A stretch of DNA of 64,000 nt, from NCBI GenBank assembly GCA_964533295.1, contig CAZHLM010000002.1, forward strand, positions 30,497-94,496. The letters run 5' to 3'. This DNA is from an uncultured Verrucomicrobiota bacterium (GTDB taxonomy: Bacteria > Verrucomicrobiota > Verrucomicrobiia > Palsa-1439). Below are positions 13,293 through 46,682 of this stretch, one piece after another; position 1 is the first letter of the stretch, and the number at the start of each line of letters is the position of its first letter. Below the pieces are notes generated by a model. The model saw nothing but the letters and a program-made list of their open reading frames with translations, searched no databases and was not told where the DNA came from. Made by a program: the position numbers and the translations under genes.

Positions 13293-13394
13293 TTGGAGGG
13301 CGCGCATGCCCGTCGTTTGGGGTGCGCGCCGCGAACGACCTTTGCTCTACGCTCTCGGCGGGAAGTCTAAACGACAGGGATTCCCGCCCTACAA
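13293..13394 (+). repeat. Copy 1 of ~100-bp TIR-bounded double-hairpin intergenic element
   Basis: ttggagggcgcgcatgcccGTCGTttggggtgcgcgcc...ggcgggaagtctaaACGACagggattcccgccctacaa. Shares the GTCGT/ACGAC loops and the CGCCCTACAA terminus with copies 2-5. Confidence 0.6.
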
Positions 13395-13443
13395 CCGCCG
13401 GGCCAAAGCTTCTAACTGCACCCTCGAGACAATTGAGAGACCA

Positions 13444-14862
13444 ATGGTGAGAATCATCCGGTACTTATTGCGAACGATCGCGAAGATCGTGATCGCGTTC
13501 GCTTGCCTGCGCGATTTGGCGACATCAGCGGCAGCGGATGCAGGCCGCAAACCAAACGTCATCCTCATCCTCGCCGATGATTTGGGTTATGGCGAACTGG
13601 GATGTTACGGCGGCCCGGTAAAAACGCCGGTAATGGACAAGCTGGCCCGCGAAGGCGTGCGTTGCACCGACGGTTACGCCGCATTTCCCGTTTGCTCGCC
13701 CTCGCGGTCGGCGCTGCTGACGGGACGTTACCCCGCCCGGTACGGCCCGACCTATGAGGACTACCACGGCGCAGGGTCACCGGATCTGGATCCGCAGAAA
13801 CATCCGACCATCGGCCAGATGATGAAGGATGTCGGCTACCGAACGGCCTGCTTCGGCAAATGGAATGTCGCCAACCAGAATCGCCGGCCGGCCAATGACT
13901 ACGGATTTGATACCTGGGTCGGCTTCCATATCAATCACGATTACTACACGCACAAACTGATCGCCAACGGCGAGTTCGCCCTCTTCCAGGACAGTCAGCC
14001 CTTCGACCGGCCCGGCGTCTGGTCGGACACGATCTTTGCCGACGAGGCCATCCGCTTCATTCAGACGAAAAGCGAAAAACCGTTCTTCATCTACCTGCCG
14101 TTCCAAGCGCCGCACGATCCGATTCAAGATCCGGATGTGCCGTTCGACAAGCCGCGCGACAAGAAGAATCCTGAGAACCGTCCCACCTTGATCAAGATGA
14201 TCGAGCGGCTCGACCGGGAAATCGGCCGTGTTCTCCAGGCGCTCGATGACGAGAAGATCGCCGGCAACACGCTGGTGATCGTGAGCAGCGACAATGGCGG
14301 TGAGCCGAAGATTGCCCGCAACCTGCCGCTCTCGGGCGCGAAACAGGAGTTGCGGGAGGGCGGCATCCGCGTGCCGCTCATCTTCCGCTGGCCCGGCGTG
14401 TTGCCCCAAGGAAAAGTTTACTCCCCGCCGGTCACCACGCTGGACCTGACCGCGACCGTGGCCGCGGCGGGCGGCGCGACGCCCCGCGCCGACAAGCCCT
14501 TCGATGGCGTCAATCTTCTGCCCGCCCTGACCGGCCAGCAACCGCTCGCTGCCGAACGTCCGCTCTTCTTCCGCCGCCGATTCGTGGTGGCCAGCGAGGG
14601 ACTGAATTCTATTTGGCAATCGGCGGTGCGTCAGGGCGACTGGAAGCTCCTGCGGACATATCAACAAATCGCTCCCGGCAGGTTCGCCGCCACCTATTCC
14701 ACGGCCCTCTACAACTTGAAAAACGACCTGGCCGAAGCGAACGACCTGGCGGCAACCCATCCCGAACGAACCACGGCGCTTGGAAAACTTCTCGACCAGT
14801 GGGAAGCGGAAATGAGCCGGACCGCAGAGCCGTTCCCAATGCCAAAGGAGGGAAAACAATGA
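13444..14862 (+). CDS. Cys-type sulfatase (secreted)
   Basis: Signal MVRIIRYLLRTIAKIVIAFACL; NVILILADDLGYGELGCYGG; CSPSRSALLTGRYP. Confidence 0.85.
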   Translation: MVRIIRYLLRTIAKIVIAFACLRDLATSAAADAGRKPNVILILADDLGYGELGCYGGPVKTPVMDKLAREGVRCTDGYAAFPVCSPSRSALLTGRYPARYGPTYEDYHGAGSPDLDPQKHPTIGQMMKDVGYRTACFGKWNVANQNRRPANDYGFDTWVGFHINHDYYTHKLIANGEFALFQDSQPFDRPGVWSDTIFADEAIRFIQTKSEKPFFIYLPFQAPHDPIQDPDVPFDKPRDKKNPENRPTLIKMIERLDREIGRVLQALDDEKIAGNTLVIVSSDNGGEPKIARNLPLSGAKQELREGGIRVPLIFRWPGVLPQGKVYSPPVTTLDLTATVAAAGGATPRADKPFDGVNLLPALTGQQPLAAERPLFFRRRFVVASEGLNSIWQSAVRQGDWKLLRTYQQIAPGRFAATYSTALYNLKNDLAEANDLAATHPERTTALGKLLDQWEAEMSRTAEPFPMPKEGKQ

Positions 14863-14935
14863 CCGCTGGTAATCCGCGAACAAGATTCACTCGGACAATC
14901 TCCGGGCGGCGAACGACAAAAACTAACTGTGAGGC

Positions 14936-16858: not shown

Positions 16859-16890
16859 CGACTCGGACAACGGAAACCGACCGATCGAAA

Positions 16891-19800
16891 ATGATGGTTT
16901 GGGCAGTATTCGTTCTGTTTGTGACAGGACTTTTGACCCCGGCTGATGCGATGAACTACTTCGTTTCCAATACCGGCGCGGACAACGCGCCGGGCACCGA
17001 GGAGCGGCCGTTCGCCACACTCGGCAAAGCGTGCAGCGTCCTGCAGCCCGGCGATACCTGTTATTTGCGTGGCGGCGTGTACCGCGAGGTGCTCCGCCCG
17101 GCCCGATCCGGTAAACCCGGCAAGCCCATCATTTTCACCAAGTACCGGGATGAACGGGTCATCCTCAGCGGGGCCGACCCCATCGCCGGCTGGCGACGCG
17201 AGGCGGACGGAGTGTACTCCGCCCCGATGCCGTGGACGATGCCGGATGGTAATCAGGTTTTCTTCAACGAAGAGATGTTGGTCGAGGCCTGTTGGCCCAA
17301 CCCCGGCCCGGCCCACCTGTTTCAGCCCGAACGCGCCACGGCGACGGCGGGCACGGAGACGACGTTGCGTTGCGATCAGCTTACCGGAGCGAAGTACGCC
17401 TGGAAGGGGGCCCGGCTGTGGTGCGCTGGCGGTGCGGGGTGGATCTGCTGGAGCTCGACCGTTACCGGCGTTGACCCTGAAACACACACGCTCACGTTTG
17501 AACCCAAACGCGAGCAATGGTACCGGCCGCGCAAGGGCAATCCGTTCGTCCTGCGCGGCAGCCGACTTGCCCTCGATGCGCCCGGCGAGTGGCTCTATGA
17601 CGCCGAACGCAACCGCCTGCTGCTGATCCCGCCGACCGGGGGCGCGCCGGCCACGGGCGCGGTCGAGGCCAAACGCCGCGATTATGTGATGGATCTTGCC
17701 GGTCGCTCGTGGATCGAGATCGCCGGCATGGAGTTCCAGGCCGGTGGTGTGAAGACCGATGCCGACTCCCACCACATCACGCTGAAGAACCTCACCGGGC
17801 GTTACGTCGCGCACAGCTACGACAAGGACACCAGCGACCGGGCGGTGTTGCTCCATGGCAAACACCTGTTGTTGCTCAACAGCGATATTGGTTACAGCTC
17901 GGCGGCGGTGGTCCACGTGCAGGGCGAGGACAACCGCGTCATCAACTGCCACCTGCACCATGGCGGTTACGCCGGGCTGTGGAGGGGAACGGTCGTTTTG
18001 TCGGGCCGGCGAATTGTGTTCAGCCACAACACCGTGCGTCATGCCGGCCGCGATCTGGTCAATACCCACGGTCTGATGGAGAGTTTTGTCCAGTACAACG
18101 ACCTCTCCGACGCCGGCTGGCTGACCAATGACCTTGGGATGCTCTACGGGCACAACACGGACTACGCCAACACCGAGTTCCGCTACAACCTCGTCCACGA
18201 CAACCGCGCCCGGCAATGCGCGCTGGGCATCTACTTCGACCACCTCAGCCACAACGCCATCGTCCATCACAACGTGATCTGGAATGTGCGCGCCGATCCG
18301 GTCCGCTTCAACAACCCCGCCTACAACAATCTGGTGTTCAATAATTCCTGCTGGAACACCGGCGATTTCTCGACCTTCGACCACTCCAAACGCAACGACC
18401 TGTTCGCCTGCCGGTATTTCAACAATCTTTACAACGGGCAGAGCTTCCTGCCGGCGCACGTCGCGGTGTACCAGAACCTCTCCACGCGCGCGCCCGGTTT
18501 CGAGAATGTCTATCGCAATCCCGAGGCGCTGGACTTCCGGCTGTTGGAGTCGGTCCAGCAATCCAGCTCCGGCATCGGCGCGTATGCAGCGGACGGCAAA
18601 TGGTGGCGCGCCGGCGGCAACCCCGGCAACCCGCCCGATCCGTTGCCCGAATACGCGCCGCCACGGATCGCCTGGATGAACACGGTCCGCAACGCCTGCT
18701 TCGAGTTTGGCACGCTCGAGGGCTGGACGAAGACCGACGCAAAGACGGCGCAACTGACCAAAGGCAACGGGTGGGGCAACGCCGCGTTCGGCGGCAGCAA
18801 GGAAAACCACCCGACCGGCACGTCACGTTTCGAGCTGCAACTCGGTCCCGGCCGCGATGGCGTCGAACAGGTCATAGAAGGACTCAGCCCCGACACCCCG
18901 TACGAACTGTCGGCCTGGCTGCGTGTTTCCGGTGCGGACGAGACGATCATGCTCGGCGTCAAAGACCACGGGATGCCGGAGCAAACCGCCGCCCACTCCG
19001 GTACGGAGTGGACACGCAAAACCGTTGCGTTCACCACCGGCCCGCAGGCCGCCCGCGCGACGATTTACTTGCGCAAGACCTCACCGGGCAACGGCCGGGC
19101 TTGGGCGGACAACGTCACCCTGCCTCTAACCCCCAAGGAAACGAAAGGAACACAACAGATCATGCCGCACACCGACCGGAGCGACCTTCCCGTTGCCCGC
19201 TTGCGGGAGGATTTCCTGAAGCTGAAGTTCGGGATGTTCCTCCACTTCAATTTGGAGACCTACAAGGGGGTGCAGTGGGTCGCGGGCTACCACAGCCCGG
19301 CGGACTTCAATCCGGGCGGCCCGATTGACACTGACGCGTGGGCGGAGGCGGCGAAAGCAGCCGGGATGCAGTACGCCGTGCTGACCGCCAAACATGTCTC
19401 GGGCTTCTGTCTGTGGGACAGCCAGTACACGACGTACGACGTGATGAATCCGGCATGCCCGGATCCGCAGGACCTCGTGGCGCAATTTGTGAAGTCGTTT
19501 ACGAGCCGGGGATTGAACGTCGGATTGTATTACTGCTGGCGGCATCCGGGTTTTCCCGAGAAGCACAAAGTGCTGCCGCCGGAATGCGATCCGGCAACGC
19601 ATTCGTTGCCGGAGCAGATCGAGTTTCAAAAGAAGCAGATTGCGGAGTTGGTCGAGAAGTTTCCGCAGGTCTTCTATCTCTGGAACGATGGGCTCGACCC
19701 GGACATCATGCCGGCCGAGCAGGCGACGGCTTTCATCCGCAGCTTGCGTCCCGGTCTGCTCGCTTCGGGCAACTGGTGGGATTGGAAGAAGAAGGGGCTG

Positions 19801-20079
19801 CCGTATCTGGACATTGCCGTCACCGAGACGCTCCATTTCCCGGCCACCAATGCGGTGCCCGGGGAGACCTGCTGGTGTTTGGAAAAAAGTTGGTTCTCCG
19901 ACGGTACCGGCCCCAAGAGCGCCGAGGAAATCGTCACGCAACTGCGGATCGCCAACAGTCGGAACGCCAATTTTCTGCTGAATGTCGGGCCGGACAAACA
20001 AGGAAAACTCCACGAGGCCAGTGTGACGGTGCTCAGGGAGATCGGACAGCTCCTCAAGCAAACCACGGAGAACAAATGA
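16891..20079 (+). CDS. Secreted tri-modular protein: N-terminal right-handed beta-helix (GH141/PL-like) + CBM-like beta-sandwich + C-terminal GH29 alpha-L-fucosidase
   Basis: NYFVSNTGADNAPGTEERPFATLGKACSVLQPGDTCYLRGGVYRE (beta-helix N-cap). Galactose-binding-like block FEFGTLEGWTK...WADNVTL. GH29 core FGMFLHFNLETY...AVLTAKHVSGFCLWDSQYTTYDVMN...FYLWNDG. Confidence 0.7.
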   Translation: MMVWAVFVLFVTGLLTPADAMNYFVSNTGADNAPGTEERPFATLGKACSVLQPGDTCYLRGGVYREVLRPARSGKPGKPIIFTKYRDERVILSGADPIAGWRREADGVYSAPMPWTMPDGNQVFFNEEMLVEACWPNPGPAHLFQPERATATAGTETTLRCDQLTGAKYAWKGARLWCAGGAGWICWSSTVTGVDPETHTLTFEPKREQWYRPRKGNPFVLRGSRLALDAPGEWLYDAERNRLLLIPPTGGAPATGAVEAKRRDYVMDLAGRSWIEIAGMEFQAGGVKTDADSHHITLKNLTGRYVAHSYDKDTSDRAVLLHGKHLLLLNSDIGYSSAAVVHVQGEDNRVINCHLHHGGYAGLWRGTVVLSGRRIVFSHNTVRHAGRDLVNTHGLMESFVQYNDLSDAGWLTNDLGMLYGHNTDYANTEFRYNLVHDNRARQCALGIYFDHLSHNAIVHHNVIWNVRADPVRFNNPAYNNLVFNNSCWNTGDFSTFDHSKRNDLFACRYFNNLYNGQSFLPAHVAVYQNLSTRAPGFENVYRNPEALDFRLLESVQQSSSGIGAYAADGKWWRAGGNPGNPPDPLPEYAPPRIAWMNTVRNACFEFGTLEGWTKTDAKTAQLTKGNGWGNAAFGGSKENHPTGTSRFELQLGPGRDGVEQVIEGLSPDTPYELSAWLRVSGADETIMLGVKDHGMPEQTAAHSGTEWTRKTVAFTTGPQAARATIYLRKTSPGNGRAWADNVTLPLTPKETKGTQQIMPHTDRSDLPVARLREDFLKLKFGMFLHFNLETYKGVQWVAGYHSPADFNPGGPIDTDAWAEAAKAAGMQYAVLTAKHVSGFCLWDSQYTTYDVMNPACPDPQDLVAQFVKSFTSRGLNVGLYYCWRHPGFPEKHKVLPPECDPATHSLPEQIEFQKKQIAELVEKFPQVFYLWNDGLDPDIMPAEQATAFIRSLRPGLLASGNWWDWKKKGLPYLDIAVTETLHFPATNAVPGETCWCLEKSWFSDGTGPKSAEEIVTQLRIANSRNANFLLNVGPDKQGKLHEASVTVLREIGQLLKQTTENK

Positions 20080-23000
20080 AGACCATGTTGAAATTGGTGA
20101 TGATCGCGCTGGCCGGGATGGCGGGGACAGCCTCCGCCAATAACCTGACCGGGATGGCCAACAGCAAGTATTACCGGGTGCATCCGCTGTTTCATCCGTT
20201 CCCGGAAGAAGACAAGACGTTGCAATCCATTGACCGGTTCGGGCCGGTGGGGGTTGGCATCAACCTCGTGCAACCGGCCTTCCAGATGCAGGTGAAGAAT
20301 GTCGAGCCGGGGTCACCGGCGGCGGCGACCGGCAAGTTGAAGCCGGGGCAGATCATTGACAGCATCAATGGCCGGGTGTTGAAGGACATGGATCCCCGGC
20401 AAATCCTCGGCGACATCATCGCCCAGGCCGAGGCGACGGATGGCGTGGTGAAATTCGTCGTGCGCGAAAAGGCCGGTGCGCCGGCGGAAGAAGTGATCGT
20501 GAACATCCCCGTGCTCGGCGCGTACAGCGCGACATGGCCGGTCCGGTGCGCCAAGTCGGATGCGATCGTGCGCAATCTCGCGGCGTTTGTGGCGAAGAAC
20601 GGGTCCGGCAACATGGGGCTGGGTGCGTTGTTTCTGTTGTCCACCGGCGAGGAGCAGGATTTGGAAGTGGTGCGCGGGTGGATGCAGAAGATCGCGGCGG
20701 AGAACAAGGACAAGACGGAGATGACGCCCGCGACGTGGTACGTGGGGTATCAGGGGTTGGCGTTTTGCGAATACTATCTGCGCAGCGGCGACCCGGCAAT
20801 TCTGCACACGATCAAGCTCTACGCGGATTACATGCAGAAGACGCAGATCAACGGCGCGTGGGGGCACAAGGGGTTTGGCTCGTTCAGTTATTCGGCGAGC
20901 GGTCACTTGAACGCGGCGGGCGCGCATGTGCTGACGTTCCTGCTGCTGGCCAAAGAATGCGGCGTGGCGGTGGACGAGACGATGTTGCAGTCGGCGTTGA
21001 AGCATTTCTACAAGTTTGCCGGGCACGGCAACGTGGCGTATGGCGACAGCTTGCCGGAGAAGAGTTTCGTGGACAACGGCAAGACCGGTATCCTGGCGTT
21101 CGGGATGCAGGCGGCGGCGACGTTGACCCCGGAGGGCGAGAACTCCGTGTACGCGAAGGCGCGGGACATTTCGGCGAGCAAGAGTTTCTACAGCACGTCG
21201 TGGATGTTGCACGGGCATACCGGAGGCGGGATCGGTGAAATCTGGCGCGGCGCGGCGATGGGTTTGGTGCGCGAAAAGCAACCCAAGAAATACCGGGAGT
21301 TCATGAATGAACGCGCGTGGTTTTATGATTTGTCGCGCCGGTGTGACGGCAGTTTCGGCATCATTGGCGGCGGCCGGTATGATGAGCCGAAAGATTGGGG
21401 CATCGGGATGGGGTTGGTGTACACGCTCCCGCGCCAAACGCTGCGGCTGACCGGCGCGCCACCGAGCAAGTTTTGCAAGACGCATCCGCTGCCGAAACGT
21501 CCGTGGGGGACGGCGGCGGATGAAGTGTTCTTCGCGCTCGAAGCGGCGCCGGTGCGCGGCGGCAAACCGCACGATGCGAACAACGAGACGTTGGTGAATG
21601 ATGGTTCGTGGCCGGTGCTGCGCAAGCTGGCGGTACCGGACGTGACCGACGAGACGTTGTTGAAATACGCGCATCATCCGGAACTCGGCATCCGTGAGTA
21701 CGCGGTGAACCAGATCCGGGCGAAGAATCGCGCGGACCTGACGGTGGAGTTGTTGAAGTCGAGCGACCCGCGGGTGCGTCATGCCGGGATCTTGGGCATT
21801 GCCGAGGTGACCGACGAGATGGCCGGGCTGCTTTTGGGCATGGTCAATGACCCGAACGAATCGTGGTGGGTGGCGCGGGGGGCGCTGGAAAAACTGGAGA
21901 CGGTGCGCGCGGAGTTGCTCGCGCCGCACAAGGACCGGTTGCTGTACTGGCTGACGCACGAGGATTGGTGGATGAGCAGCGCGGCGTTGACGGCGGTGAG
22001 TAGTTTGGTGGCGGACAAGGAACACGCCGAGACATTCCTGCCGGTGATTGGCGAGATGATCACCAAGAACGTCCGGCAGTCGCCGATCTGGCAATTGGAG
22101 AAAATGTTGCGCACCGCCAGTCCGGAGGTGCAGGCGTCGGCGTTGCAGGTGTTGGCGCAGGCGTACGCGCAATTCCCCAAAACGGTCACCACGGCGGCGG
22201 GGGTGAAGGTGGACACCGCCGAGCCGCAGCAGGTGGGCGCGTACGCGTGGCTGATGGCAAAATTGCCCACGGGGTACGACGTGCTCTATGAGTTGTCGAA
22301 GAGCCGGTATCCGGGGCAGACGTTGCCGCATCCGAAATTGTTTTTGGAGGCGAATCCCGAGCGGTTCGGTCCGGAATTGCGGAATGGTTTTCAGCGGATC
22401 ATCCGCGAGCAGTTGATTCCCGAGTTCATTGGCCAGGCCAATCACATCGCGTCGAATCGCAAGTTGCTGTTGGAGGAATGCTCCAGCGCCGTGCCGTTCA
22501 AGTCCAACTTGTACTACGGGCGGCCGCGGGTGGAGGACTTGGCGGATTTTCATCGCCGGTTGGGGGTGCGGGATTATGACTGGCACGAGTTCGGCCCGGC
22601 CTTCCACACCATGAAGTTCGATTACTTCACCTTCGACCCGCCGGAGCAGCTTCAACTGGGAACACGCAATCGGTATCGGAAGGTGACGTTCCCGCCGGGC
22701 ATGGACAACTGGTTCGCCACGGATTTTGATCCGCGCAAGGCCGGTTGGTCGAGCGGGCTGCAGCCGTTTGGGCAGATGAACGGCAAACTCGTTCCCCCGG
22801 CGCAGACGTTTTGGGACAAGGAAGTGCTGCTCGCGCGCGGGACGTTCACGTTTCCGAAATTCAAGGAGTCGTGCCGCTATCGGCTCGGAGTGGGCGTGTG
22901 GCAAACCCATCAAGGCGAGGGGTACCGGGTGTATGTGAACGGCAAGCTGATGATGGAACGGGATCGCGGCGTCCTGCCGCGGGAACGCGGCGAATCTTAC

Positions 23001-23582
23001 TACTACATTGACAAGGCGTGGTGGCCGGATTTCCAGAGCGGCAACACCGTGATCGCCTTCACGAGTTTTCTGCAGATGGACGGGAACGGCAAACGGAACA
23101 ACTTTCGGGTGTGGCTGGAGGAAATGAAGTGTCCGCCCATTGGCGAAACGGAAATCCTCGAATCGGTCAAGGCCGTGCCGATGCGTTCGGCGGCGTGGCA
23201 GGCGTTGCAGGATCCGGACAACATGGAGCTTGATCCCGCCGCCGGCCTGTATCGGTGGGACGGGAAGTTTGCGCCGAACGCAAAAGTGGTCGGCACGTGG
23301 GCGCAGTTGGGCGAGGTGGCGACGGTGGAAGCGTTCACGCCGGCGGCCCGGCTGCGGCCGAATTCAGTGCTGCCGGCCAAGCTGACGTTTGCGGAAAATG
23401 GGCGGACGGATGATCCGCTGTTGTATTACACCGGCGACGTGTTGCTGCACCTGAACACCAATCAGGCGCTCCAGATGAAGGTCGTGAACGACCACTTGTT
23501 CATCGAAGCCGGTGGATTCGAAACGAAAAAGGGTGCGAACTGGAAATGTCCGTGGCTGGTGTTCAAACGGGTTCAACCATAA
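20076..23582 (+). CDS. Giant secreted PDZ-(alpha/alpha)6-HEAT-repeat protein, paralog A (1168 aa) with C-terminal GH2-N-like sugar-binding beta-sandwich
   Basis: Signal MKTMLKLVMIALAGMAGTASA. PDZ-like GKLKPGQIIDSINGRVL. Family motifs VIVNIPVLGAYSATWPVRCAKS, WYVGYQGLAFCEYYLRSGD, FYDLSRRCDGSFG. HEAT-type SSDPRVRHAGILGIAEV. C-terminal ...YRLGVGVWQTHQGEGYRVYVNGKLM. ATG overlaps the upstream stop (ATGA). Confidence 0.6.
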   Translation: MKTMLKLVMIALAGMAGTASANNLTGMANSKYYRVHPLFHPFPEEDKTLQSIDRFGPVGVGINLVQPAFQMQVKNVEPGSPAAATGKLKPGQIIDSINGRVLKDMDPRQILGDIIAQAEATDGVVKFVVREKAGAPAEEVIVNIPVLGAYSATWPVRCAKSDAIVRNLAAFVAKNGSGNMGLGALFLLSTGEEQDLEVVRGWMQKIAAENKDKTEMTPATWYVGYQGLAFCEYYLRSGDPAILHTIKLYADYMQKTQINGAWGHKGFGSFSYSASGHLNAAGAHVLTFLLLAKECGVAVDETMLQSALKHFYKFAGHGNVAYGDSLPEKSFVDNGKTGILAFGMQAAATLTPEGENSVYAKARDISASKSFYSTSWMLHGHTGGGIGEIWRGAAMGLVREKQPKKYREFMNERAWFYDLSRRCDGSFGIIGGGRYDEPKDWGIGMGLVYTLPRQTLRLTGAPPSKFCKTHPLPKRPWGTAADEVFFALEAAPVRGGKPHDANNETLVNDGSWPVLRKLAVPDVTDETLLKYAHHPELGIREYAVNQIRAKNRADLTVELLKSSDPRVRHAGILGIAEVTDEMAGLLLGMVNDPNESWWVARGALEKLETVRAELLAPHKDRLLYWLTHEDWWMSSAALTAVSSLVADKEHAETFLPVIGEMITKNVRQSPIWQLEKMLRTASPEVQASALQVLAQAYAQFPKTVTTAAGVKVDTAEPQQVGAYAWLMAKLPTGYDVLYELSKSRYPGQTLPHPKLFLEANPERFGPELRNGFQRIIREQLIPEFIGQANHIASNRKLLLEECSSAVPFKSNLYYGRPRVEDLADFHRRLGVRDYDWHEFGPAFHTMKFDYFTFDPPEQLQLGTRNRYRKVTFPPGMDNWFATDFDPRKAGWSSGLQPFGQMNGKLVPPAQTFWDKEVLLARGTFTFPKFKESCRYRLGVGVWQTHQGEGYRVYVNGKLMMERDRGVLPRERGESYYYIDKAWWPDFQSGNTVIAFTSFLQMDGNGKRNNFRVWLEEMKCPPIGETEILESVKAVPMRSAAWQALQDPDNMELDPAAGLYRWDGKFAPNAKVVGTWAQLGEVATVEAFTPAARLRPNSVLPAKLTFAENGRTDDPLLYYTGDVLLHLNTNQALQMKVVNDHLFIEAGGFETKKGANWKCPWLVFKRVQP

Positions 23583-23601
23583 GAAGGGTGCGCCGCGAGT
23601 T

Positions 23602-23704
23602 ATTGCAGGGCGGGCGCGCCAGTCGTCCAGGCTGGCCGCCGTTGGTTCGGGGTTGAACTACGGTCGCGGCGCGAACCCTAAACAACAGGGATTCGCGCCC
23701 GACA
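23602..23704 (+). repeat. Copy 2 of TIR-bounded double-hairpin intergenic element
   Basis: attgcagggcgggcgcgccaGTCGTccaggctggccgcc...ggcgcgaaccctaaACAACagggattcgcgcccgacaa. Confidence 0.6.
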
Positions 23705-23755
23705 ATTCCGGATCGGCTCAAACCTTGCGGGGCGACCCCCATAAGGAGAAAGATT

Positions 23756-29934: not shown

Positions 29935-29949
29935 AAGAAAGAAGTATCC

Positions 29950-36656: not shown

Positions 36657-38452
36657 AACCGGATTCTCGGATCCCGTTTCCCGCGTGCCGAACCGATGCG
36701 CGCACAGATCCCCAGATGCCGGCCCGCCGACGGCGGCGTGAACGCGAGGCGCAATTCGTTCGTTCCGCGACGAAGCGGGAGTCGGATTTTGTATTTCTCG
36801 GGGTCAATCGGCACGCGGGCGGCCGGGTCTGTCAACACGAGCCGGCCATTGCACCACAACTTGAACGGGGCATTGGCGCCGAGCTGCAGCATGGCCTCGA
36901 GTCGCTCCGTGGCGGTCACCGTCGTGCGCAACACATACACGCCGACCCGTTTGTCATCGGCCGGTTTGGGCAGGACGCCGAAGGGCTCGCGCGGCGGCGC
37001 CGTTCGCCAGGTCGTCGCGCGCGACACCCGCGCCCAGCTCGCTTCGGCCAGGGTTTTGACGCCCCGCAACAGAGCGGTCTGCCAGTGGTCGCAGTCCGGC
37101 GCGCGTGTTTTGTCGTGCGGCACCGGCACCGCCTGCATCACCGGCAGACCCATTCCCGCGCAGTCGGTGATGTTGCAACACGGCATGCGGCCGTGACCGT
37201 AGCTGATGCTCATCCGTTCCAATTGCGCCAACACCATGCCGGTATGGAGCAGCACCTGATTTCCGTGGAGCGTGGTCTTGAAAAGACCGAGCGTGTCCTG
37301 TCCGTGCTGGCTTACGATGACAAAGCCGGTCGGCAATCCCGGGCTGATCAGGCCGCCCGTCACATGCCGGTACGTCAACCGCAGCGACCGGGCTTGTTGC
37401 GCGGGGGGCAGGTTCGGCGTCGGAACGATTTCGATTCGTTCCAGCGCAATCCCGGGGCGGGTCGTCAAGCGGGCGAGTCGTCGGCCAAGGATCTGTTGCG
37501 CGCGTCCGCTGAGGTGAATCCCGTCGTCCAATTCCAAATCCACGGCGGGCGCGACGGCCAGGTTTCGGATTCGGGCGGGCAACATTCGTTGCTGTTCCTG
37601 GATATGGTTCCACCACCGCGGGTCCTCGGTGGAGGCATGGCGGCCGATCTGCACCAGGTACCATGGCAGTTGCGGCAAGCCCAGGTCGCGCCGCACCGCC
37701 GCCACCAACGCGACCATCCGCTCGGTATATTTCGGCGCGGCTTCTGCGTTGGCGTCGCTTTCGCCCTGATACCACAACATGCCGGCCACGGGCTGACCGA
37801 GCTTCACATATCGGCGATACATCGCTCCGTACAACGACTCCCCGCCCTGGTCGCGCAACGCCGGCGACCATTGGGCCATGCTCGTGCCGCCGTGGGCGCA
37901 CGCCAGCAACCCTTGCGGCACGCCCGTGCGACGGCGCATCTCCAGGCCAAACGCCAAGCCCGGTGAGACGCCTTTGAGGAGCGCCTTGCGTCCCCGCTCC
38001 AATGCTTGCCGGTTGGGGGGATTGGGCCCGGCATGAACCGCGTCCACCGCTTCGGGCCGGTAATGCAACGGTTCCTCGGCCTGCCGCCATTCATCGGCCA
38101 TCGAGAAACACCGCACCAGCGGATGCGGCTTCGGCGCGTCGCAGAGGTTGCCGACGCCTTCCATGTTCGATTGTCCGGCCAGAATCCACACATCGCCCAC
38201 AAACACGTCGCGGACAATGAGTCGCTCGTCGCCGATGCGGAATTCCACCCGGTACGGTCCGCCGGTTTTCAAGCCGGTCAGCGTGGCGTGAAACGTCCCG
38301 TTGGCCGCGCGGCCGATCGGTTGCCAGCGTTTTCCGATCCGCGCCTCGACCGCGCCGGTCGCCGCGGTCTGGCCGGTAATTCGGGCACGACCGAAACCGT
38401 GTCGGTCGCGTTGCAAGACCTGTCCGTCCAGTAACCCGTGTGTAATCTTCAT
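36653..38452 (-). CDS. SASA/DUF303-family carbohydrate O-acetylesterase (acetyl-xylan/sialate esterase type), no signal peptide
   Basis: VWILAGQSNMEG and GMLWYQGESDA. ATGA-type overlap with both neighbours. Confidence 0.75.
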   Translation of the reverse strand: MKITHGLLDGQVLQRDRHGFGRARITGQTAATGAVEARIGKRWQPIGRAANGTFHATLTGLKTGGPYRVEFRIGDERLIVRDVFVGDVWILAGQSNMEGVGNLCDAPKPHPLVRCFSMADEWRQAEEPLHYRPEAVDAVHAGPNPPNRQALERGRKALLKGVSPGLAFGLEMRRRTGVPQGLLACAHGGTSMAQWSPALRDQGGESLYGAMYRRYVKLGQPVAGMLWYQGESDANAEAAPKYTERMVALVAAVRRDLGLPQLPWYLVQIGRHASTEDPRWWNHIQEQQRMLPARIRNLAVAPAVDLELDDGIHLSGRAQQILGRRLARLTTRPGIALERIEIVPTPNLPPAQQARSLRLTYRHVTGGLISPGLPTGFVIVSQHGQDTLGLFKTTLHGNQVLLHTGMVLAQLERMSISYGHGRMPCCNITDCAGMGLPVMQAVPVPHDKTRAPDCDHWQTALLRGVKTLAEASWARVSRATTWRTAPPREPFGVLPKPADDKRVGVYVLRTTVTATERLEAMLQLGANAPFKLWCNGRLVLTDPAARVPIDPEKYKIRLPLRRGTNELRLAFTPPSAGRHLGICARIGSARGKRDPRIRL

Positions 38453-40424: not shown

Positions 40425-41408
40425 ATGAAAGAAGCAAGAATGGGCGGCGGACAGGAGCCGGGCGTCGTGGAAGTCGCCGACCCGGTGGTTGCCGACAACT
40501 ATGCGCTGGTGAAAGTGTTCTCCGCGCCGTTGTGCACGGAGTTCAAGCATCGGGACCGCGCCCGTCGCGGCGGTTTTGGCCATGAAGCGGCCGGTGAAGT
40601 GGTGGCGATCGGGCCGAAGGTGCGGTCGGTCGCGGTGGGTGACCGCGTGGTGGTGATGCCGCAAGACGCGTGCGGGCTGTGTGAGCTGTGCCGGTCGGGC
40701 GAGCATATTTATTGTCCGGCGCCGCGCGACGCCCTGAAGATTTGTGGCTCCGCGACCGGGCGGTTTACCGCGGCGCAATACGTCATCCAGCAGGATTGGT
40801 TGCTCGTGCCGATTCCCGGCGACATCAGCTACGACCATGCGGCGATGGCGTGTTGCGGATTCGGGCCGGGCTTCAACGCGATGGAGTCCATGGAGGTCGC
40901 GGCCGGTGAGACGGTGTTGATTTCCGGGCTGGGGCCGGTCGGGTTGGGCGCGGCGGCGGTGGCGCTGTTCCGGGGCGCGCGGGTGGTCGGCGTGGATCCG
41001 AGCGCCTACCGGCGCGAACTGGCCAAACGGATGGGGGTGGAAGCGGTGTTTGATCCGCAGGAGAATCCTGGCGGGAGAAAGTTTCCTTATGGCGTGCATG
41101 TCACCCGCTCCGATGAGGCCGCGAAGGCGTTGATCCGAATGATCCAGCCGCGCGGCAAGGTGGCGTTCATTGGACAGGGCGGCGCCATCGAGATCGCCGC
41201 GGTGGTGGGGAAGGGGCTGCGGTTGTTCGGCTGCTGGCATTGGAATCATCAGAAACACACGGAACAAATGATGGCGACCATCCGTGGGTCTGCGGAGCGA
41301 ATTGATGCGCTGATTACGCACACGTTCCCGCTGGATCGAATCCGGGAAGCGTTTGCGGTGCAGGTGTCCGGTAACTGCGGGAAAGTGGTAATTCATCCAT
41401 GGAATTGA
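40425..41408 (+). CDS. Zn-dependent alcohol/polyol dehydrogenase (MDR superfamily)
   Basis: GFGHEAAGEVVAIGPKV (catalytic-Zn motif), CGLCELCRSGEHIYC (structural-Zn Cys cluster), GLGPVGLGA (Rossmann). RBS-like GGAGAGG upstream of the ATG. Confidence 0.8.
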   Translation: MKEARMGGGQEPGVVEVADPVVADNYALVKVFSAPLCTEFKHRDRARRGGFGHEAAGEVVAIGPKVRSVAVGDRVVVMPQDACGLCELCRSGEHIYCPAPRDALKICGSATGRFTAAQYVIQQDWLLVPIPGDISYDHAAMACCGFGPGFNAMESMEVAAGETVLISGLGPVGLGAAAVALFRGARVVGVDPSAYRRELAKRMGVEAVFDPQENPGGRKFPYGVHVTRSDEAAKALIRMIQPRGKVAFIGQGGAIEIAAVVGKGLRLFGCWHWNHQKHTEQMMATIRGSAERIDALITHTFPLDRIREAFAVQVSGNCGKVVIHPWN

Positions 41409-41435
41409 CTGCGATGGAAAATCTCCGTCCGTCCA

Positions 41436-41536
41436 TTGTAGGGCGGGCAGGCCTGTCGTGCAGGCTGCCCGCCACAAGCGTGGTGGCGCGTCCCCAACGG
41501 CGCGAACCCCAAACGACGGGGATTCGCGCCCTACAA
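41436..41536 (+). repeat. Copy 4 of TIR-bounded double-hairpin intergenic element (most canonical copy)
   Basis: TTGTAGGGCGggcaggcctGTCGTgcaggctgcccgcc...ggcgcgaaccccaaACGACggggattcgCGCCCTACAA. The 10-bp termini are exact reverse complements. Confidence 0.65.
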
Positions 41537-41553
41537 TTTTTTCTCCCGCTATC

Positions 41554-42432
41554 ATGAACGATAACGACCTGTGGGTAACCGTCGGACCGGCGAACGGAAA
41601 ACACATCGTCTTGATCAGCGGCGACGAGGAATACCGGTCGGAGGAGGCGTTGCCGATGTTGGCGCAGGTCCTGAGCGCGCATCACGGGTTTCGGTGCACG
41701 GTGCTGTTTGCGATTGATCCGGCAACGGGACTCGTGGATCCGAATTGCCAGACCAACATTCCCGGCATGCATCTGCTCGACACGGCGGACATGGTGGTGT
41801 TGTTCGTGCGGTTTCGGGAGTTACCGGACGCGGACATGGCGCATTTCGTGAACTATCTTTCCGCCGGTAAACCGCTGCTCGGGTTGCGGACTGCGACGCA
41901 CGCGTTCCGGTATTCACGCAACCCGGCCAGTCCGTACGCCCATCTGCGCGATTTTGGCCGGCAGGTGCTCGGAGAGAATTGGGTCGCGCATCATGGGAAA
42001 CACGGCGTCGAGAGCACGCGCGGCATTCCGCGCGCCGGGCATCCGATTTGTCAGGGCATCGGCACCATTTGGGGGCCGACGGATGTGTACGCGGTGCATC
42101 CGCCCGGCGATGTCGAGGTGTTGGTGGACGGGCACGTGTTGACGGGCATGAACCCCAACGACCCGGTCAAACCCGACACGCCGACCATGCCGGTGGCGTG
42201 GATTCGGGAACGGAACGGGGCGCGGATTTTCTGTTCCACGATGGGCGCGGCGACCGACCTGCTGGATCCATCGTTGCGGCGCTTGCTGGTCAACGGCGTC
42301 TATTGGTGTCTGGGGATGGAGGGCCAGATTTCCTTCCAACGGAATGTGGAGCCGATCGGGCGCTATCAGCCGACTCCGTTCGGATTCCGAAAGACGCCGA
42401 CCGGCAAGCGACCGCGGGAGTTTTTCCGATGA
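41554..42432 (+). CDS. ThuA-like (class-I glutamine-amidotransferase-like fold) protein
   Basis: KHIVLISGDEEYRSEEALPMLAQVL...MVVLFVRFRELPDADMAHFVNYLSAGKPLLGLRTATHAF, the ThuA family pattern. Confidence 0.55.
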   Translation: MNDNDLWVTVGPANGKHIVLISGDEEYRSEEALPMLAQVLSAHHGFRCTVLFAIDPATGLVDPNCQTNIPGMHLLDTADMVVLFVRFRELPDADMAHFVNYLSAGKPLLGLRTATHAFRYSRNPASPYAHLRDFGRQVLGENWVAHHGKHGVESTRGIPRAGHPICQGIGTIWGPTDVYAVHPPGDVEVLVDGHVLTGMNPNDPVKPDTPTMPVAWIRERNGARIFCSTMGAATDLLDPSLRRLLVNGVYWCLGMEGQISFQRNVEPIGRYQPTPFGFRKTPTGKRPREFFR

Positions 42433-44474
42433 AAATGTCTTTGCGACAATGGTTGGTCGTGATCGTCGCGGCGGCGGTGGTTCAGGCGCAAGTGACGAAT
42501 TCGCCGCCGCGACCGGATTGGAAGAAACCGAAACAGTTCACGGTGCTGGCGGCGCATCCGCGGCTGTTTGTGTCGTCAGAACAAATCGAACGGATGGTCG
42601 CGGGCCGGGGCGACACGTTTGCGCGGGCTTGCGAGCAAGTAGCGACGGTGGCCGACGCGGCGCTGGGCGATGTGGAGCAACCGATGCAGGAGATCAGTCC
42701 GTTCGAGCGCGGATTTCTGATTCAAGGACGGCTCACCTCGCTGGCGATTCAGTGGCATCGGACGCGCGACCGGCGGTACTTGGAAGCCGCGCTGAAGACG
42801 GTTCAGGCGATGCGGAGCTGGCTCGAACCGCTGAGGGAGTTCAGTCTGCAACACGGCCAGTACATCGCCGGGATCGCCGTCGCGTATGACCTGCTCTACA
42901 ACGATCTCACGGTCGAGGAACGCGCCGCGGTTGTGGCGTTGGCGCGCGAGCACTGCATCCGGCCGTTCCTGCGACTGACCGGGAAGGGACGCAACTTGCC
43001 GACGGACGGCGAGCGGGGGAGTTGGTGGCAGGAGATTGTCTCGAACTGGAATGCGGTCTGCAACAGCGGGCCCGGCCTGTTGGCGTTGACGATGTATGAA
43101 GACCTCGACGAAGCCCAGACCGTGTTGGACCGGGTGGACGCCTCGTTCAAGCCCATCTTCGACTATTTGCAACAAACCGAGGGCGGCTGGGTGGAAGGGT
43201 TGGGGTATTGGAACTGGACGATCCATTACCTATCGCTTTTCTACATGAGCTACGAGCGCGCAACGGGCTTGAAACATGAAGGCTTCCGATCGCCCGGCTT
43301 TCGTCAATCGCTGACGTTTGGCACGTACTTTGTGCCCTACGACGAGGCTTGCGGGTTCGGTGACAACCAGCATGGCAACATCAGTTCCTCCCTGCTCGCC
43401 GCGGCGGAACATCTCGGCGACAAGGCAGCCCTCAAAACGCTCCAAGATTATCAAGACCGCTACCGGGCCGCTCGCAAATCAAAAGCGGATCGGCGCACTC
43501 CGCAGCCCGGCGCGGTGTCGGTAAAGGCACCAAAGTCCGACGCCACGGCCGGCAACATTGGCTACGGCGTGCCGCAGGATCTGTTGATTCTCCCCGACCC
43601 GCTGACCGACGTTCCTTCCGCGCCCGCGGTGACGAACATGGTGCGGTATTTCCCGAAACAAGGTTGGGCGATGATCGCCGACCGCTGGCCGCAACCGACC
43701 ATCTACGCGGCGATTCGCGGCGGCGAATTGGGCGGACCGCACACGCACGATGACCTGCTCTCGTGGCACGGCGTGGTCGGCACCGAGCGGATGATCAGCA
43801 CGCTGACCAAGGCCGGTTACTACGCCTCGGCGTGGGCGGGCCGCGCGCGTGAGATCAACGAGCGGAACAGCGCCTCCAAAAACACGCTGTTTATTGCCGG
43901 CCTCAGCGCCTACAGCGGGTACAACGAACGCCGCGGCGGTTACGCGCAGGCCAGCGCCACGTCGTTTCTGCTGCCGACCGGCGCGGCGTTGCGACTGGAC
44001 GCCACCCGCGCTTTCTACCTGACCCGCGCCAGTCCGCGACTGGTCACCCGGCTGTTCGCGGTGCTCGGCGACAAAGGCCTCCTCGTGTTGGACCGCATGG
44101 TCGCACCGGCCCGGCACCCGGTCGAGGTGCGCACCTACACCGAGAAACCGGCCCGGTTTGGCGAGCGCGATGTGTTGCTCGAAGGCGAGTGCGAAGTGGC
44201 GCGCATGACGTTTGCCGCCGACCGCCCGGCCCGGTTGCGTCATGCGGTGGCGTTGCTCACCGACGCGCGCGCCGAGCCGCCGACGATGATGCGCTGGCAA
44301 ACACTCGACCCCGAAGCATCCGTCACGCTGGCCTCGTTGCTGACTCGCGGTCGCGAGCCGGTGGATCTGAAGGTGAAATCAGACGCGACGACCGTGGTCG
44401 TCACCGTGACCGGCAAGGGCTGGCGGCAGCGGGTCGAGTTGACCGACAAACTCCTGCCGGTGGCCACGCCATGA
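42429..44474 (+). CDS. Secreted heparinase II/III-like polysaccharide lyase ((alpha/alpha)6 toroid + beta-sandwich)
   Basis: Signal MKMSLRQWLVVIVAAAVVQA. N-terminal DUF4962-like region, then GGPHTHDDLLSWHGVV, typical of the Hepar_II_III catalytic His/Tyr region. ATGA overlap with upstream gene. Confidence 0.55.
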   Translation: MKMSLRQWLVVIVAAAVVQAQVTNSPPRPDWKKPKQFTVLAAHPRLFVSSEQIERMVAGRGDTFARACEQVATVADAALGDVEQPMQEISPFERGFLIQGRLTSLAIQWHRTRDRRYLEAALKTVQAMRSWLEPLREFSLQHGQYIAGIAVAYDLLYNDLTVEERAAVVALAREHCIRPFLRLTGKGRNLPTDGERGSWWQEIVSNWNAVCNSGPGLLALTMYEDLDEAQTVLDRVDASFKPIFDYLQQTEGGWVEGLGYWNWTIHYLSLFYMSYERATGLKHEGFRSPGFRQSLTFGTYFVPYDEACGFGDNQHGNISSSLLAAAEHLGDKAALKTLQDYQDRYRAARKSKADRRTPQPGAVSVKAPKSDATAGNIGYGVPQDLLILPDPLTDVPSAPAVTNMVRYFPKQGWAMIADRWPQPTIYAAIRGGELGGPHTHDDLLSWHGVVGTERMISTLTKAGYYASAWAGRAREINERNSASKNTLFIAGLSAYSGYNERRGGYAQASATSFLLPTGAALRLDATRAFYLTRASPRLVTRLFAVLGDKGLLVLDRMVAPARHPVEVRTYTEKPARFGERDVLLEGECEVARMTFAADRPARLRHAVALLTDARAEPPTMMRWQTLDPEASVTLASLLTRGREPVDLKVKSDATTVVVTVTGKGWRQRVELTDKLLPVATP

Positions 44475-46555
44475 CGAGTTCGCTTACCACCGTTGACTGG
44501 CCGGCGTTTCTCGCGGCGCACGACATGATCTGGGAGACGGTGCCGGACAGTTGGAAGGAAGCGCCCCATTTTGGCAACGCGCTGCTCGGTTCGATGCTGT
44601 ATCGGCGCGACGGGAAACTCTGTCTGGAGATGTTTCGCGCCGACGTTCACGACCGCCGCGACGAAACGCACGGCTGGACTGCGTACAGCCGGCCGCGGTT
44701 TCGGATCGGATATTTCACGCTGGAAAATGCCGGCAAGCTGACCGGCTGTCGGTGGCGGAAGGATTTGTGGAACGCCGAGTTGACCGGCACGATCACCACC
44801 GAGCGCGGCGAGATTGGTCTCCGGCATTTTGTTCACGCCGAGGACCTGGTCGGCGTGACCGAGTGGACGGGCGCGACGGGGTTGCGGTGGCAGTGGCATC
44901 CGTTTGCGGCCCGCACGACGCGCGAGGGCTATCCCACGGACGCGGCCAGCTTGGATGCGTTTGCGAAGCGCTACGGGGAACATTACCGGCCGACGCTTCA
45001 GCCGCTGATCCCGAATCCGCCGGGGCGGTTGGAAAACGGGATGTGGATTCAGGATTTGCTGGCCGGTGGGCGGTATGTGACCGCATGGAAAGAGGAGGCC
45101 AACCGGCTGGTCGTCGGGACATCGGCCAATCTGCAATACGATCCGGAACGTCACCGGGCCTGGTGGCACGCGTATTACCGGCGCAGTTACGTCCGCATCC
45201 CGGACAAGAAATTGGAGGCGTTGTACTGGCAGACGGTGTACCGGCTGGGCTGCACGGCGCGGGCGGGGCGGAGTTTCGTGGATACGTCCGGCATTTGGTT
45301 TCAAGGCGGGTCGTGGCCGTATGCGACGCATGATTGGAACACGCAGGCGGCGCACTGGGGCGTGTATGCGGCCAACCGGCTGGAGCAGGGCGCGGAGATC
45401 GTGAATCGCTTGCAGGCGCATCGCGAGAGCCTCGTTCGCGCCGTCGAGCCGGCAGAATGGCAGACGGACTCGGCGTATCTGGCGTTGGCGACGGCGGGCG
45501 ACCTGGCCGGGACGCGCCGCAGTGACATGCGGTACTATCATCTGGTCGGGTGTCTGCCGTGGTTGCTGCACAACGCGTGGTGGCAATACCGGTATTCGAT
45601 GGATGAGGCGCTGTTGCGGGAGACCGTCTTTCCGTTGCTGCGGCGCGCGGTGAATCTGTATTTGCATCTGCTGGAGGAGGGCGACGATGGCCGGTATCAT
45701 CTCGCGCCGACCTACTCGCCCGAGACCGGCGTGTGGCGGGACGGCAACTTCGATCTCGCGCTGTTGAAGTGGGGCTGTCACATGTTGCTCCAGGCTTGCC
45801 GGCGGTTGCGGATGGATGATCCGCTGATCCCGCGCTGGCGGGAGGTGATCGCGAAGTTGGTGGACTTCCCGGCGGACGAGAAGGGCTACCGGCTCGGCCG
45901 GGATGAGCCGGCGCGGGAGCATCACCGGCATTTGTCGCATCTGCTGATGATGTATCCGTTGTATCTGGTGAACATCGAGCAGCCCGGTAATCGGGAGATT
46001 TTGCGCAAGTCCTGTACCGCGGGCTGGCAACCGGACAAGCCGTTGCAGGCGATGGTGCAGGCCCATGCCGGGCCGATCCAGGCTTCCGTCGGCAATGGCG
46101 ACGCGGTGTTGGCGGGACTGCGTCGGCTCCAGGAGGAATTGCACCCGAACGGTCTGTGGGGCGAGCCGCCGTGCATCGAGTCCACGTTGGCGGTGTTGAA
46201 CAACGTCCAGATGATGCTGCTCCAAAGCTGGAGCGACCCGGCCCGCGATGAACCGGTGTTGATACGAATTTTCCCCGCGCTACCGGCAGCGTGGGAGGAT
46301 GTGGAGTTTCAGGACTTGCGCGCCGAGGGCGCGTTCCTGGTTTCCGCCCGGCGTCGCGGCGGCGCGACGGAATGGGTGCGAGTCAAGAGTCTGGCCGGTG
46401 AGCCGTGTCGGGTGAAACTGGATTTGCGGAGTCCGCAGGTCGAAGCGCACCCGCGGAGCGCGGTTGCCGAGGTGCAGCCGGGAATGTTCGAATTAAATCT
46501 GCCGCGAGATGGGGAAGTCGTGTTTCGCCAACCGGGAGCGAGTGTGCCGGGATGA
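44471..46555 (+). CDS. GH95-like six-hairpin glycosidase (distant fucosidase/galactosidase homolog), cytoplasmic
   Basis: EHHRHLSHLLMMYPL parallels the DQHRHLSHLSAVHPG motif of the bona fide GH95 at 8148. 694 aa, no signal peptide. Confidence 0.5.
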   Translation: MTSSLTTVDWPAFLAAHDMIWETVPDSWKEAPHFGNALLGSMLYRRDGKLCLEMFRADVHDRRDETHGWTAYSRPRFRIGYFTLENAGKLTGCRWRKDLWNAELTGTITTERGEIGLRHFVHAEDLVGVTEWTGATGLRWQWHPFAARTTREGYPTDAASLDAFAKRYGEHYRPTLQPLIPNPPGRLENGMWIQDLLAGGRYVTAWKEEANRLVVGTSANLQYDPERHRAWWHAYYRRSYVRIPDKKLEALYWQTVYRLGCTARAGRSFVDTSGIWFQGGSWPYATHDWNTQAAHWGVYAANRLEQGAEIVNRLQAHRESLVRAVEPAEWQTDSAYLALATAGDLAGTRRSDMRYYHLVGCLPWLLHNAWWQYRYSMDEALLRETVFPLLRRAVNLYLHLLEEGDDGRYHLAPTYSPETGVWRDGNFDLALLKWGCHMLLQACRRLRMDDPLIPRWREVIAKLVDFPADEKGYRLGRDEPAREHHRHLSHLLMMYPLYLVNIEQPGNREILRKSCTAGWQPDKPLQAMVQAHAGPIQASVGNGDAVLAGLRRLQEELHPNGLWGEPPCIESTLAVLNNVQMMLLQSWSDPARDEPVLIRIFPALPAAWEDVEFQDLRAEGAFLVSARRRGGATEWVRVKSLAGEPCRVKLDLRSPQVEAHPRSAVAEVQPGMFELNLPRDGEVVFRQPGASVPG

Positions 46556-46592
46556 TGAAGCGAGCAAGTTTGGGACAGGCTGTTGTAGGGCG

Positions 46593-46682
46593 CGATGGCT
46601 GTCGTTTAGGAATCGCGCCGCGGACAGGGTTGATCATTCCTCGCGGCGCGCACCCCAAACGACGGGGATGCGCGCCCTGCAA
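46593..46682 (+). repeat. Copy 5 of TIR-bounded double-hairpin intergenic element
   Basis: TTGTAGGGCGcgatggctGTCGTttaggaatcgcgcc...ggcgcgcaccccaaACGACggggatgcgCGCCCTGCAA. Both halves here are near-identical inverted units. Confidence 0.6.

Follow-up and report, generated by a model that had tools for sequence, protein, structure and literature searches.

Genomic setting of the five repeats

The stretch analysed here (the window) is 64,000 nucleotides of contig CAZHLM010000002.1, from an uncultured Verrucomicrobiota bacterium (assembly GCA_964533295.1), with a G+C content of 62.7%, and our subject is a family of intergenic repeats of which it holds five dispersed copies, about 100 bp each. These had been picked out in a first-pass annotation made by reading the DNA, and they are real: a profile built from the ten half-units recovers 10/10 of them in the window at E <=5e-8, the next match standing at E = 0.3, and finds no solitary or weaker stray unit in the 64 kb. 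In addition, the degenerate unit pattern TTGNAGGGCGSGNNNNCNNGTCGTNNNGNNNNNSCGCC has 8 matches in the window versus 0 in 100 dinucleotide shuffles. The five copies are mutually related, with a mean column identity of 77% in a MAFFT alignment. Their positions in the window, and the evidence on which each extent is based, are as follows.

13261-13424 (full extent; core doublet 13293-13394), unstranded: copy 1, from the half-unit profile and similarity to loci L007, L013 and L010
23585-23738 (full extent; core doublet 23603-23705), unstranded: copy 2, from the profile and ~150-nt BLAST matches to 12 other loci (spanning 23584-23738)
35257-35360, unstranded: copy 3, from the half-unit profile, gene calls and subtype
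41436-41536, unstranded: copy 4, from the half-unit profile, gene calls, subtype and termini
46583-46682, unstranded: copy 5, from the half-unit profile and subtype

Copies 1, 3 and 4 lie where they had been placed before, the core of copy 2 falls at 23603-23705, and copy 5 starts at 46583 rather than 46593. The earlier length of ~100 bp holds for the core and fails for copies 1 and 2, which reach ~155-165 bp because they carry subfamily-specific outer inverted repeats. In the family of copy 1 these are GGTGCAGTTCAAACCTTTGG / CCAAAGCTTCTAACTGCACC and in that of copy 2 GGGCGCACCGCAAG / CTTGCGGTGCGCCC; copy 2 belongs to a widespread subfamily in which an A and a B unit (subtypes described below) stand between GGGCGCACCGCAAGTT on the left and TTCCGGACCAGCTCAAAACTTGCGGTGCGCCC on the right. 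The flanks of copy 3 form a short outer inverted repeat, AGTGGCGGTC / GACCGCCACT.

All five copies are strictly intergenic, as had been claimed, and the genes on either side are real ones by Pfam match and by codon-position GC, which marks one gene per region. The flanking genes encode WbsX-like, sulfatase, DUF6288, SASA esterase, DUF6785, GH10, zinc alcohol dehydrogenase (ADH), ThuA and GH95 proteins, and four of the five copies lie between co-directional genes, again in agreement with the earlier description. Copy 3 is flanked by the minus-strand genes for GH10 (35505-36656) and DUF6785 (33195-35168), copy 4 lies between ADH (end 41408) and ThuA (start 41554), and copy 5 is downstream of the GH95 gene (end 46555). 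The distance from stop codon to copy start is 21-34 nt for copies 1, 2, 4 and 5 and 145 nt for copy 3; in their extended form, copies 1 and 2 occupy the spacer from 2-3 nt past the upstream stop nearly to the next ribosome-binding site.

Anatomy of the unit and of the doublet

The repeating unit is ~38 nt long. At its 5' end stands an unpaired head, TTGTAG, and after it comes an imperfect hairpin of 12 bp in which a one-base bulge and the GTCGT loop are conserved. The left and right halves of each copy are inverted versions of this one unit, as had been seen from the sequence and as both the repeat finder (inverted pairs up to 95% complementary) and the half-unit profile bear out. Two units thus stand head-out, ~25 nt apart, in what we call a doublet, and some subfamilies add a further, outer inverted repeat around the doublet. 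The stems fall into subtypes: A (GGGCGGGCA.GCCTG..CAGGCTGCCCGCC), B (GGGCGCG[AC]ATCCC..GGGGT[TG]CGCGCC) and C, which is rarer than the other two. A is paired with B, and rarely C with B.

Across the family, the head reads GTAG in 109/153 units and the loop GTCGT in 126/153. Covariation was assessed in a gap-free alignment of 93 distinct units, in which 96.6% of hairpin cells are paired and four stem pairs have both bases changed in 32-46 of the 93 sequences (GC/CG 44:43, CG/AU 56:33, CG/GC, UA/CG/GC). The covariation score is 0.331 versus 0.104 in shuffles, of which 0/500 reach 0.331, and slid registers give 0.011-0.051. The AU/CG alternative at pair 13-32 occurs within both the A and the B subtype, so the signal is not that of two lineages counted repeatedly, and the pairing and covariation together imply that the hairpin structure is maintained. 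Head and loop are conserved as sequence; the stem is conserved as structure.

The window copies differ in their heads and subtypes. Copy 1 has a type B unit on the left (head GGAG) and an A-variant, GGCGGGAATCCC, on the right (head GTAG); the heads of copy 2 are GCAG / GTCG and those of copy 3 GGAG / GCAG; copy 4 is the sole window copy with GTAG on both heads; and copy 5 joins a type C unit (GGGCGCGATGGCTGTCGTTTAGGAATCGCGCC, head GTAG) to a type B unit (head GCAG). The exact reverse-complement 10-bp termini that had been ascribed to all copies are found in copy 4 only, with one mismatch in copies 1, 3 and 5 and two in copy 2. Likewise, the uniform orientation reported at first does not hold. 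Read by subtype on the + strand, copies 2, 3 and 4 run A to B, copy 1 runs B to A, and copy 5 runs C to B; copy 1 also aligns better as its reverse complement to copies 3, 4 and 5. A doublet is 58-76% identical to its own reverse complement, nearly the same read either way, and a forward alignment of all five is therefore uninformative on orientation.

As DNA, the copies fold with z-scores of -2.4 to -5.4, and the extended copies 1 and 2 folded as RNA reach -78 and -87 kcal/mol. A single long hairpin is predicted for copies 1 and 5 only, and copy 3 is predicted to form two separate hairpins. With their outer repeats included, copies 1 and 2 fold into one closed multi-stem structure: in copy 1 a long hairpin is closed by the outer stem, and copy 2 forms an outer stem, its spacer being paired with the flank on the right.

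The family beyond the window

The unit pattern matches 22 stretches in species-representative genomes and 49 metagenome contigs, 71 loci in all. A look-up by exact identity to the window's GH10 protein returned no contig. The genome matches lie mostly in one Verrucomicrobiota metagenome-assembled genome (MAG), CAZEQV01, and further ones in two other Verrucomicrobiota/Verrucomicrobiia MAGs and in CAYWBX01, a MAG labelled Hyphomicrobiaceae. By the half-unit profile, the window and the 71 loci hold 158 units (10 in the window and 148 elsewhere), which include 63 clear head-out doublets, most often 102-104 nt long. Among typed doublets, 58/61 are A+B, 3/61 are B+B and 0/61 are A+A. Tandem doublet arrays occur in L008 (three copies, with a period of ~153 nt), L017, L056 and L072, and CAZEQV01, itself a fragmented MAG, has at least 23 exact-pattern units on 16 contigs. 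The family is not confined to glycan loci, since elsewhere it adjoins genes for enolase-superfamily, ABC transporter and type II secretion pseudopilin-like proteins.

Across contigs, and with crude gene calls, doublets between co-directional genes are in sense orientation in 13 cases and antisense in 6, and others lie in divergent (n=9) or convergent (n=3) spacers. Neighbouring doublets on one contig have the same orientation in 4 cases and opposite orientations in 4, which rules out an orientation bias by replication strand or toward the + strand.

CAYWBX01 (L001, L005, L010) is titled 'uncultured Hyphomicrobiaceae bacterium', and among the relatives it stands nearest to the window (93-95% DNA identity, three contigs). 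It is probably mislabelled or mis-binned, because the gene content and all the other repeat-bearing MAGs point to Verrucomicrobiota or, more broadly, to the Planctomycetes-Verrucomicrobia-Chlamydiae (PVC) group.

Linkage to a RAYT transposase

Repetitive extragenic palindromes (REPs) that carry an unpaired GTAG are known to accompany genes for REP-associated tyrosine transposases (RAYTs), and RAYT genes flanked by GTAG REPs have been named REPtrons (Di Nocera et al. 2013, PMC3733652). A RAYT probe (E. coli YafM-like) was used for candidate location only, each match then being verified by Pfam, NCBIfam and PDB. It located four candidate loci, in three of which (L054, L046, L071) the gene is embedded among the repeats, with units within tens of bp. 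In total, six independent gene contexts have a RAYT directly flanked by doublets: L054, L046, L071, L072, L073/74 and L075/76. At L054 there is a doublet on either side of the RAYT and a third begins at the contig end; at L046 units lie on both sides; and at L071 a doublet begins at the RAYT stop codon. In the five REPtrons with readable subtypes, the flanking doublets run A to B (or C to X) along the direction of the RAYT gene.

The candidate open reading frames (ORFs) match Pfam Y1_Tnp and score 92.6-112.8 bits against NCBIfam NF047646 (REP_Tyr_transpos, REP-associated tyrosine transposase; cutoff 80), with 106-113 bits for the RAYTs of L054, L046 and L071, and they reach 23-34 bits against the IS200 equivalog profile, below its cutoff of 55. 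Their sole PDB match is 4ER8, E. coli TnpA-REP, and it is weak (E ~1e-4 over ~95 residues). Two HUH histidines, a tyrosine and an asparagine are invariant in 7 RAYT sequences, and they align to H59, H61, Y115 and N119, which make up the active site of TnpA-REP (Messing et al. 2012, PMC3479197). PVC-type metagenomes and MAGs (Pontiella, Kiritimatiellales, Lentisphaerota) are rich in homologs of the L071 RAYT, many of which JGI has named 'REP element-mobilizing transposase RayT'. The linkage also holds in reverse: starting from the RAYT homologs P0004, P0013 and P0027 (58-67% identity), TTGTAGGGCG...CGCCCTACAA doublets lie on both sides of the gene in 3/3 contexts, their stems varying between genomes.

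A RAYT locus can be proposed for the population of the window itself. Two contigs of metagenome Ga0073934 match the window over 2.4-2.5 kb, at 99.3% (L050) and 99.8% (L060) identity, and two of MAG CAYWBX01 (L005 and L010) are 93-95% identical to it. The RAYT contig L054 likewise comes from Ga0073934, and 939 nt of it match L001 of CAYWBX01 at 95.2% identity; L001 stops at the doublet adjoining where the RAYT would lie. From this matching divergence, L054 is likely to carry the RAYT of the population to which the window belongs.

Some further details of the RAYT loci may be recorded here. At L071 (844-849) and L072 (6595-6600) the RAYT stop TAG is the TAG of the downstream doublet's GTAG head; at L054 the frame differs and the RAYT ORF reads through the doublet. 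L008, which has six units in 6 kb, has no RAYT between its clusters; a gene of the enolase superfamily and a large unannotated one lie there instead. L036 (4181-4948) encodes a second, more distant RAYT subtype that is 26% identical to the L071 RAYT, has a longer N-terminus and scores 92.6 bits against NF047646. An A/B doublet lies 3.7 kb from this RAYT, which is flanked by different repeats encoding similar C-terminal peptide tails; RAYT and repeats may represent a second REP family in the same community.

Signs of turnover and conservation at orthologous sites

Copies 1 and 4 are kept in relatives that are 93-95% identical, the ortholog of copy 1 being in L010 (94-95%), and this fits the long vertical persistence described for REPINs (pairs of REPs that fold into hairpins; Bertels et al. 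2017, PMC5581495). Copy 4 is likewise kept in L077, a lineage ~93% identical to the window, where the site of copy 5 holds only the B half; the similarity of L077 to the window ends exactly at the copy 5 B unit. Copy 3 adjoins a synteny breakpoint with respect to L077, in which the gene order at GH10 differs. At a greater distance, L018 (~80% identity to the window) carries a doublet, flanks included, in the spacer between orthologs of window genes 385-840 and 976-2223, and the corresponding window spacer, 840-976, is without it.

Positions 1-3825 of L077 match window 35505-36656, 40425-42512 and 46474-46678 at 85-93% identity. There, SASA-GH10 points the same way as the ADH-copy 4-ThuA block and stands directly upstream of it, and the contig joins window ~42512 to ~46474, two large genes being absent. 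Relative to L077, the window has an inverted fucosidase-SASA-GH10 block with copy 3 beside one breakpoint; alternatively, L077 is a chimeric assembly.

In practical terms, the repeats break metagenome assemblies, create spurious ORFs and mark synteny breakpoints. The longest sulfatase ORF (13306-14862) starts inside copy 1, and a 50-aa 'gene' was called wholly within the copy 4 ortholog (L077 2518-2670).

Nature of the repeats and alternative explanations

We consider it very probable that the five repeats are GTAG-tagged REPs arranged as head-out doublets, non-autonomous and mobilised in trans by a separately encoded RAYT. Such doublets appear in the literature as HH dimers, REPINs or units like bacterial interspersed mosaic elements (BIMEs). 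A REP/BIME-like element with a matching RAYT elsewhere was one of the identities offered in the first-pass annotation, and it is upheld by the GTAG heads, the imperfect hairpins, the head-out doublets and the RAYTs flanked by the same doublets in related contigs. We assign the repeats to a known type of REP/RAYT system because every structural feature has a precedent in the survey of GTAG REPs (PMC3733652) and in the REPIN-RAYT and BIME literature. The present system stands apart in its unit sequence, in the conservation of the GTCGT loop, in an A+B rule that is nearly absolute and in its host lineage.

Under this reading, the doublets would be non-autonomous elements copied in trans by the RAYT, a Y1/HUH single-strand DNA nuclease encoded separately, which would bind the folded hairpin and GTAG head on single-stranded DNA and cut beside it. 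The elements would then settle in intergenic spacers right after stop codons and be tolerated there. We infer this cleavage and transposition chemistry from work on E. coli and Pseudomonas, and the same work suggests possible host side effects, such as protection of mRNA 3' ends in operons. It is plausible, as a side effect, that copies are transcribed as stable stem-loops inside operons and, given how stable the folds are, that they may influence the mRNA stability of individual operons. Most window copies are probably decaying fossils that would no longer be good substrates, because only copy 4 keeps GTAG on both heads.

[quoted passage not shown] This second identity from the first-pass annotation is very improbable in our view. 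Target-site duplications are lacking: in none of the five copies do the flanks share a direct repeat, which is as expected for Y1 elements. Nor are the termini perfect outside copy 4, and the apparent terminal repeat is merely the head of each inverted REP unit; single units and tandem head-out arrays exist too. The enzymes associated with the units are of the Y1/HUH kind: in the 78 loci examined (as opposed to whole genomes), only RAYT genes, and no DDE enzyme, adjoin them. An origin as sites for chromosome-architecture proteins, kept for nucleoid organisation in the way that E. coli BIMEs bind IHF, gyrase or Pol I, we hold to be extremely improbable. It draws on resemblance, in that A/B heterodimers whose spacer is fairly conserved recall Y/Z BIMEs, and on the GTCGT loop and head being conserved in sequence, as a protein recognition site would be. 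However, it is precisely a conserved head and hairpin that a RAYT recognises, the units are in physical linkage with RAYT genes, and presence/absence differences between close lineages speak against fixed sites.

A host regulatory RNA was the other possibility raised at the outset: transcribed stem-loops would serve polysaccharide-utilisation genes as attenuators, intrinsic terminators or stabilisers of mRNA 3' ends. The placement of every copy shortly past a stop codon (21-145 nt), four of them between co-directional genes, and the very stable DNA and RNA folds speak for such a role, and E. coli REPs do protect upstream mRNA (literature summarised in PMC3733652). Yet no T-run directly follows the hairpins (copy 4 alone has one, 6 nt beyond the stem), and intrinsic termination was rejected, with 0/10 REP hairpins called, a weak alternative 5-bp stem in copy 5 as the only call there, and total calls not above those in shuffles. 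Rfam 15 gives no match in the window at gathering thresholds, and none that overlaps the elements at E<=1 over 13000-47000. The mixed orientation to transcription (the sense, antisense, divergent and convergent cases counted above) and the occurrence of the family outside glycan loci argue in the same direction, so that a dedicated, strand-specific regulatory RNA is quite unlikely, and any such effect would at best be secondary, arising copy by copy on top of a mobile repeat. Also unlikely is a more elaborate variant, in which A+B pairing, GTCGT loops and outer stems would make up a 150-165-nt multi-stem module, either co-opted by the host as an intercistronic RNA processing or stability element filling the stop-to-ribosome-binding-site spacers of glycan-utilisation operons, or serving a RAYT system with a two-hairpin recognition unlike that of E. 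coli and Pseudomonas.

Several observations weigh against the identification as RAYT-mobilised REP doublets. The 64-kb window has no RAYT gene, the six RAYT contexts being on related contigs, and the likely assignment of L054 to the window's population draws on metagenome co-occurrence and matching divergence. Only 4/10 window heads read GTAG, the other six being the single-base variants GCAG, GGAG and GTCG, and the current mobility of window copies with such heads is doubtful. Cleavage by TnpA-REP of E. coli is impaired when GTAG carries a single change (PMC3479197). The A+B heterodimers do not form a single long hairpin of the sort that gave REPINs their name. Copy number is expressed here as a local density, 5 doublets per 64 kb, rather than as a genome-wide count; REPs are typically present in more than 100 copies spread over the whole chromosome. 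Finally, the boundaries of the L018 insertion are unclean, the indel being 248 nt versus a conserved element of 153 nt, and this difference is equally well explained by a deletion in the window lineage.

Other features of the window

Besides the REP doublets, the window carries arrays of paralogous genes. There are at least 5-6 paralogous sulfatase genes (13444-14862 and 48600-58000), whose conserved motifs account for repeat families D1, D4, D5, D11 and D17; a Pfam Sulfatase match is established for the gene at 13444-14862, and an array of this kind is typical of sulfated-glycan utilisation loci. Three large paralogs (19338-23582, 29950-32979 and 58057-61296) share DNA stretches that are 65-81% identical (repeat families D7 and D8), and the first of them encodes a DUF6288 protein with PDZ and HEAT-like regions. 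Esterase paralogs with a 'GQSNM' motif lie at 23756-25156, 26297-27505, 36653-38452 and 62689-63800 (repeat families D6, D9, D10, D12 and D14). They are linked to Pfam SASA (sialate O-acetylesterase-like carbohydrate esterase) by a direct match for 23756-25156 and through an ortholog in L078 for 36653-38452. In addition, the 30-nt direct repeat GCCGACACTGATGGCGACGGATTGAGCGAC occurs four times within a long ORF (62349-62585, 63912-63941), where the encoded peptide would be an Asp/Gly-rich repeat (D-x-D-G-D-G-like) of a calcium-binding kind.

Comparison with known systems

To our knowledge, REP-doublet/RAYT systems have been studied almost wholly in Proteobacteria. The present analysis adds a clearly documented one from uncultured Verrucomicrobiota-like bacteria, which is not a new class of element, and its strict A+B pairing and conserved loop provide a defined substrate set for probing DNA recognition by a non-proteobacterial RAYT.

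The closest precedent is the survey of GTAG-tagged REPs by Di Nocera et al. (2013, PMC3733652), who found them in eight phyla, including the PVC superphylum, with Opitutus terrae (Verrucomicrobia) highly enriched. In that survey, dimers with the GTAG ends outside (HH) are the predominant arrangement, heterodimers with differing stems are often preferred, spacers are typically 20-100 bp and conserved in HH dimers, and some dimers lie inside longer palindromes. Our repeats share with these the unpaired GTAG at one end of a short GC-rich stem-loop, the HH dimers, the heterodimeric make-up, the spacer range, the longer palindromes, the intergenic location downstream of genes and the RAYT association. 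The comparison with families GTAG-1 to GTAG-24 is by description rather than by consensus sequence, the present unit being TTGTAGGGCG..GTCGT..CGCC with a 12-bp stem and a one-base bulge. One difference lies in spacing: for the HH dimers of O. terrae 1-2 bp between partners have been reported (PMC3733652), whereas the partners in the present doublets are ~25 nt apart.

With the REPIN-RAYT systems of Pseudomonas and Enterobacteria (Bertels & Rainey 2011; Bertels et al. 2017, PMC5581495), our repeats have in common an inverted doublet that behaves as the replicated unit, subfamily flanks and spacers copied along with it, a RAYT flanked by the same REPs, vertical conservation across lineages 93-95% identical, and singlets that look like decayed doublets. 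They differ in that the present doublets are mostly A+B, with two hairpins, and that the host belongs to the PVC group rather than to Proteobacteria.

In E. coli, the GTAG 5' of the hairpin foot and an irregularity in the stem are required for binding and cleavage by TnpA-REP (Messing et al. 2012, PMC3479197). The GTAG 5' of an imperfect hairpin foot and the two inverted, alternating REP subtypes of the E. coli BIMEs are both seen here, and the RAYT likewise has the HUH motif, catalytic tyrosine and asparagine ligand at the positions aligned with TnpA-REP (4ER8). However, the protein similarity is weak, REP sequence, loop and spacing are unrelated, and the GTCGT loop is strongly conserved in the present units. 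More distantly, insertion sequences of the IS200/IS605 group also combine a Y1/HUH transposase with subterminal imperfect hairpins, a short guide tetranucleotide and the absence of target-site duplications. The present RAYTs differ from these in clearing the RAYT cutoff but not that of the IS200 equivalog, and the repeats differ in multiplying without the gene.

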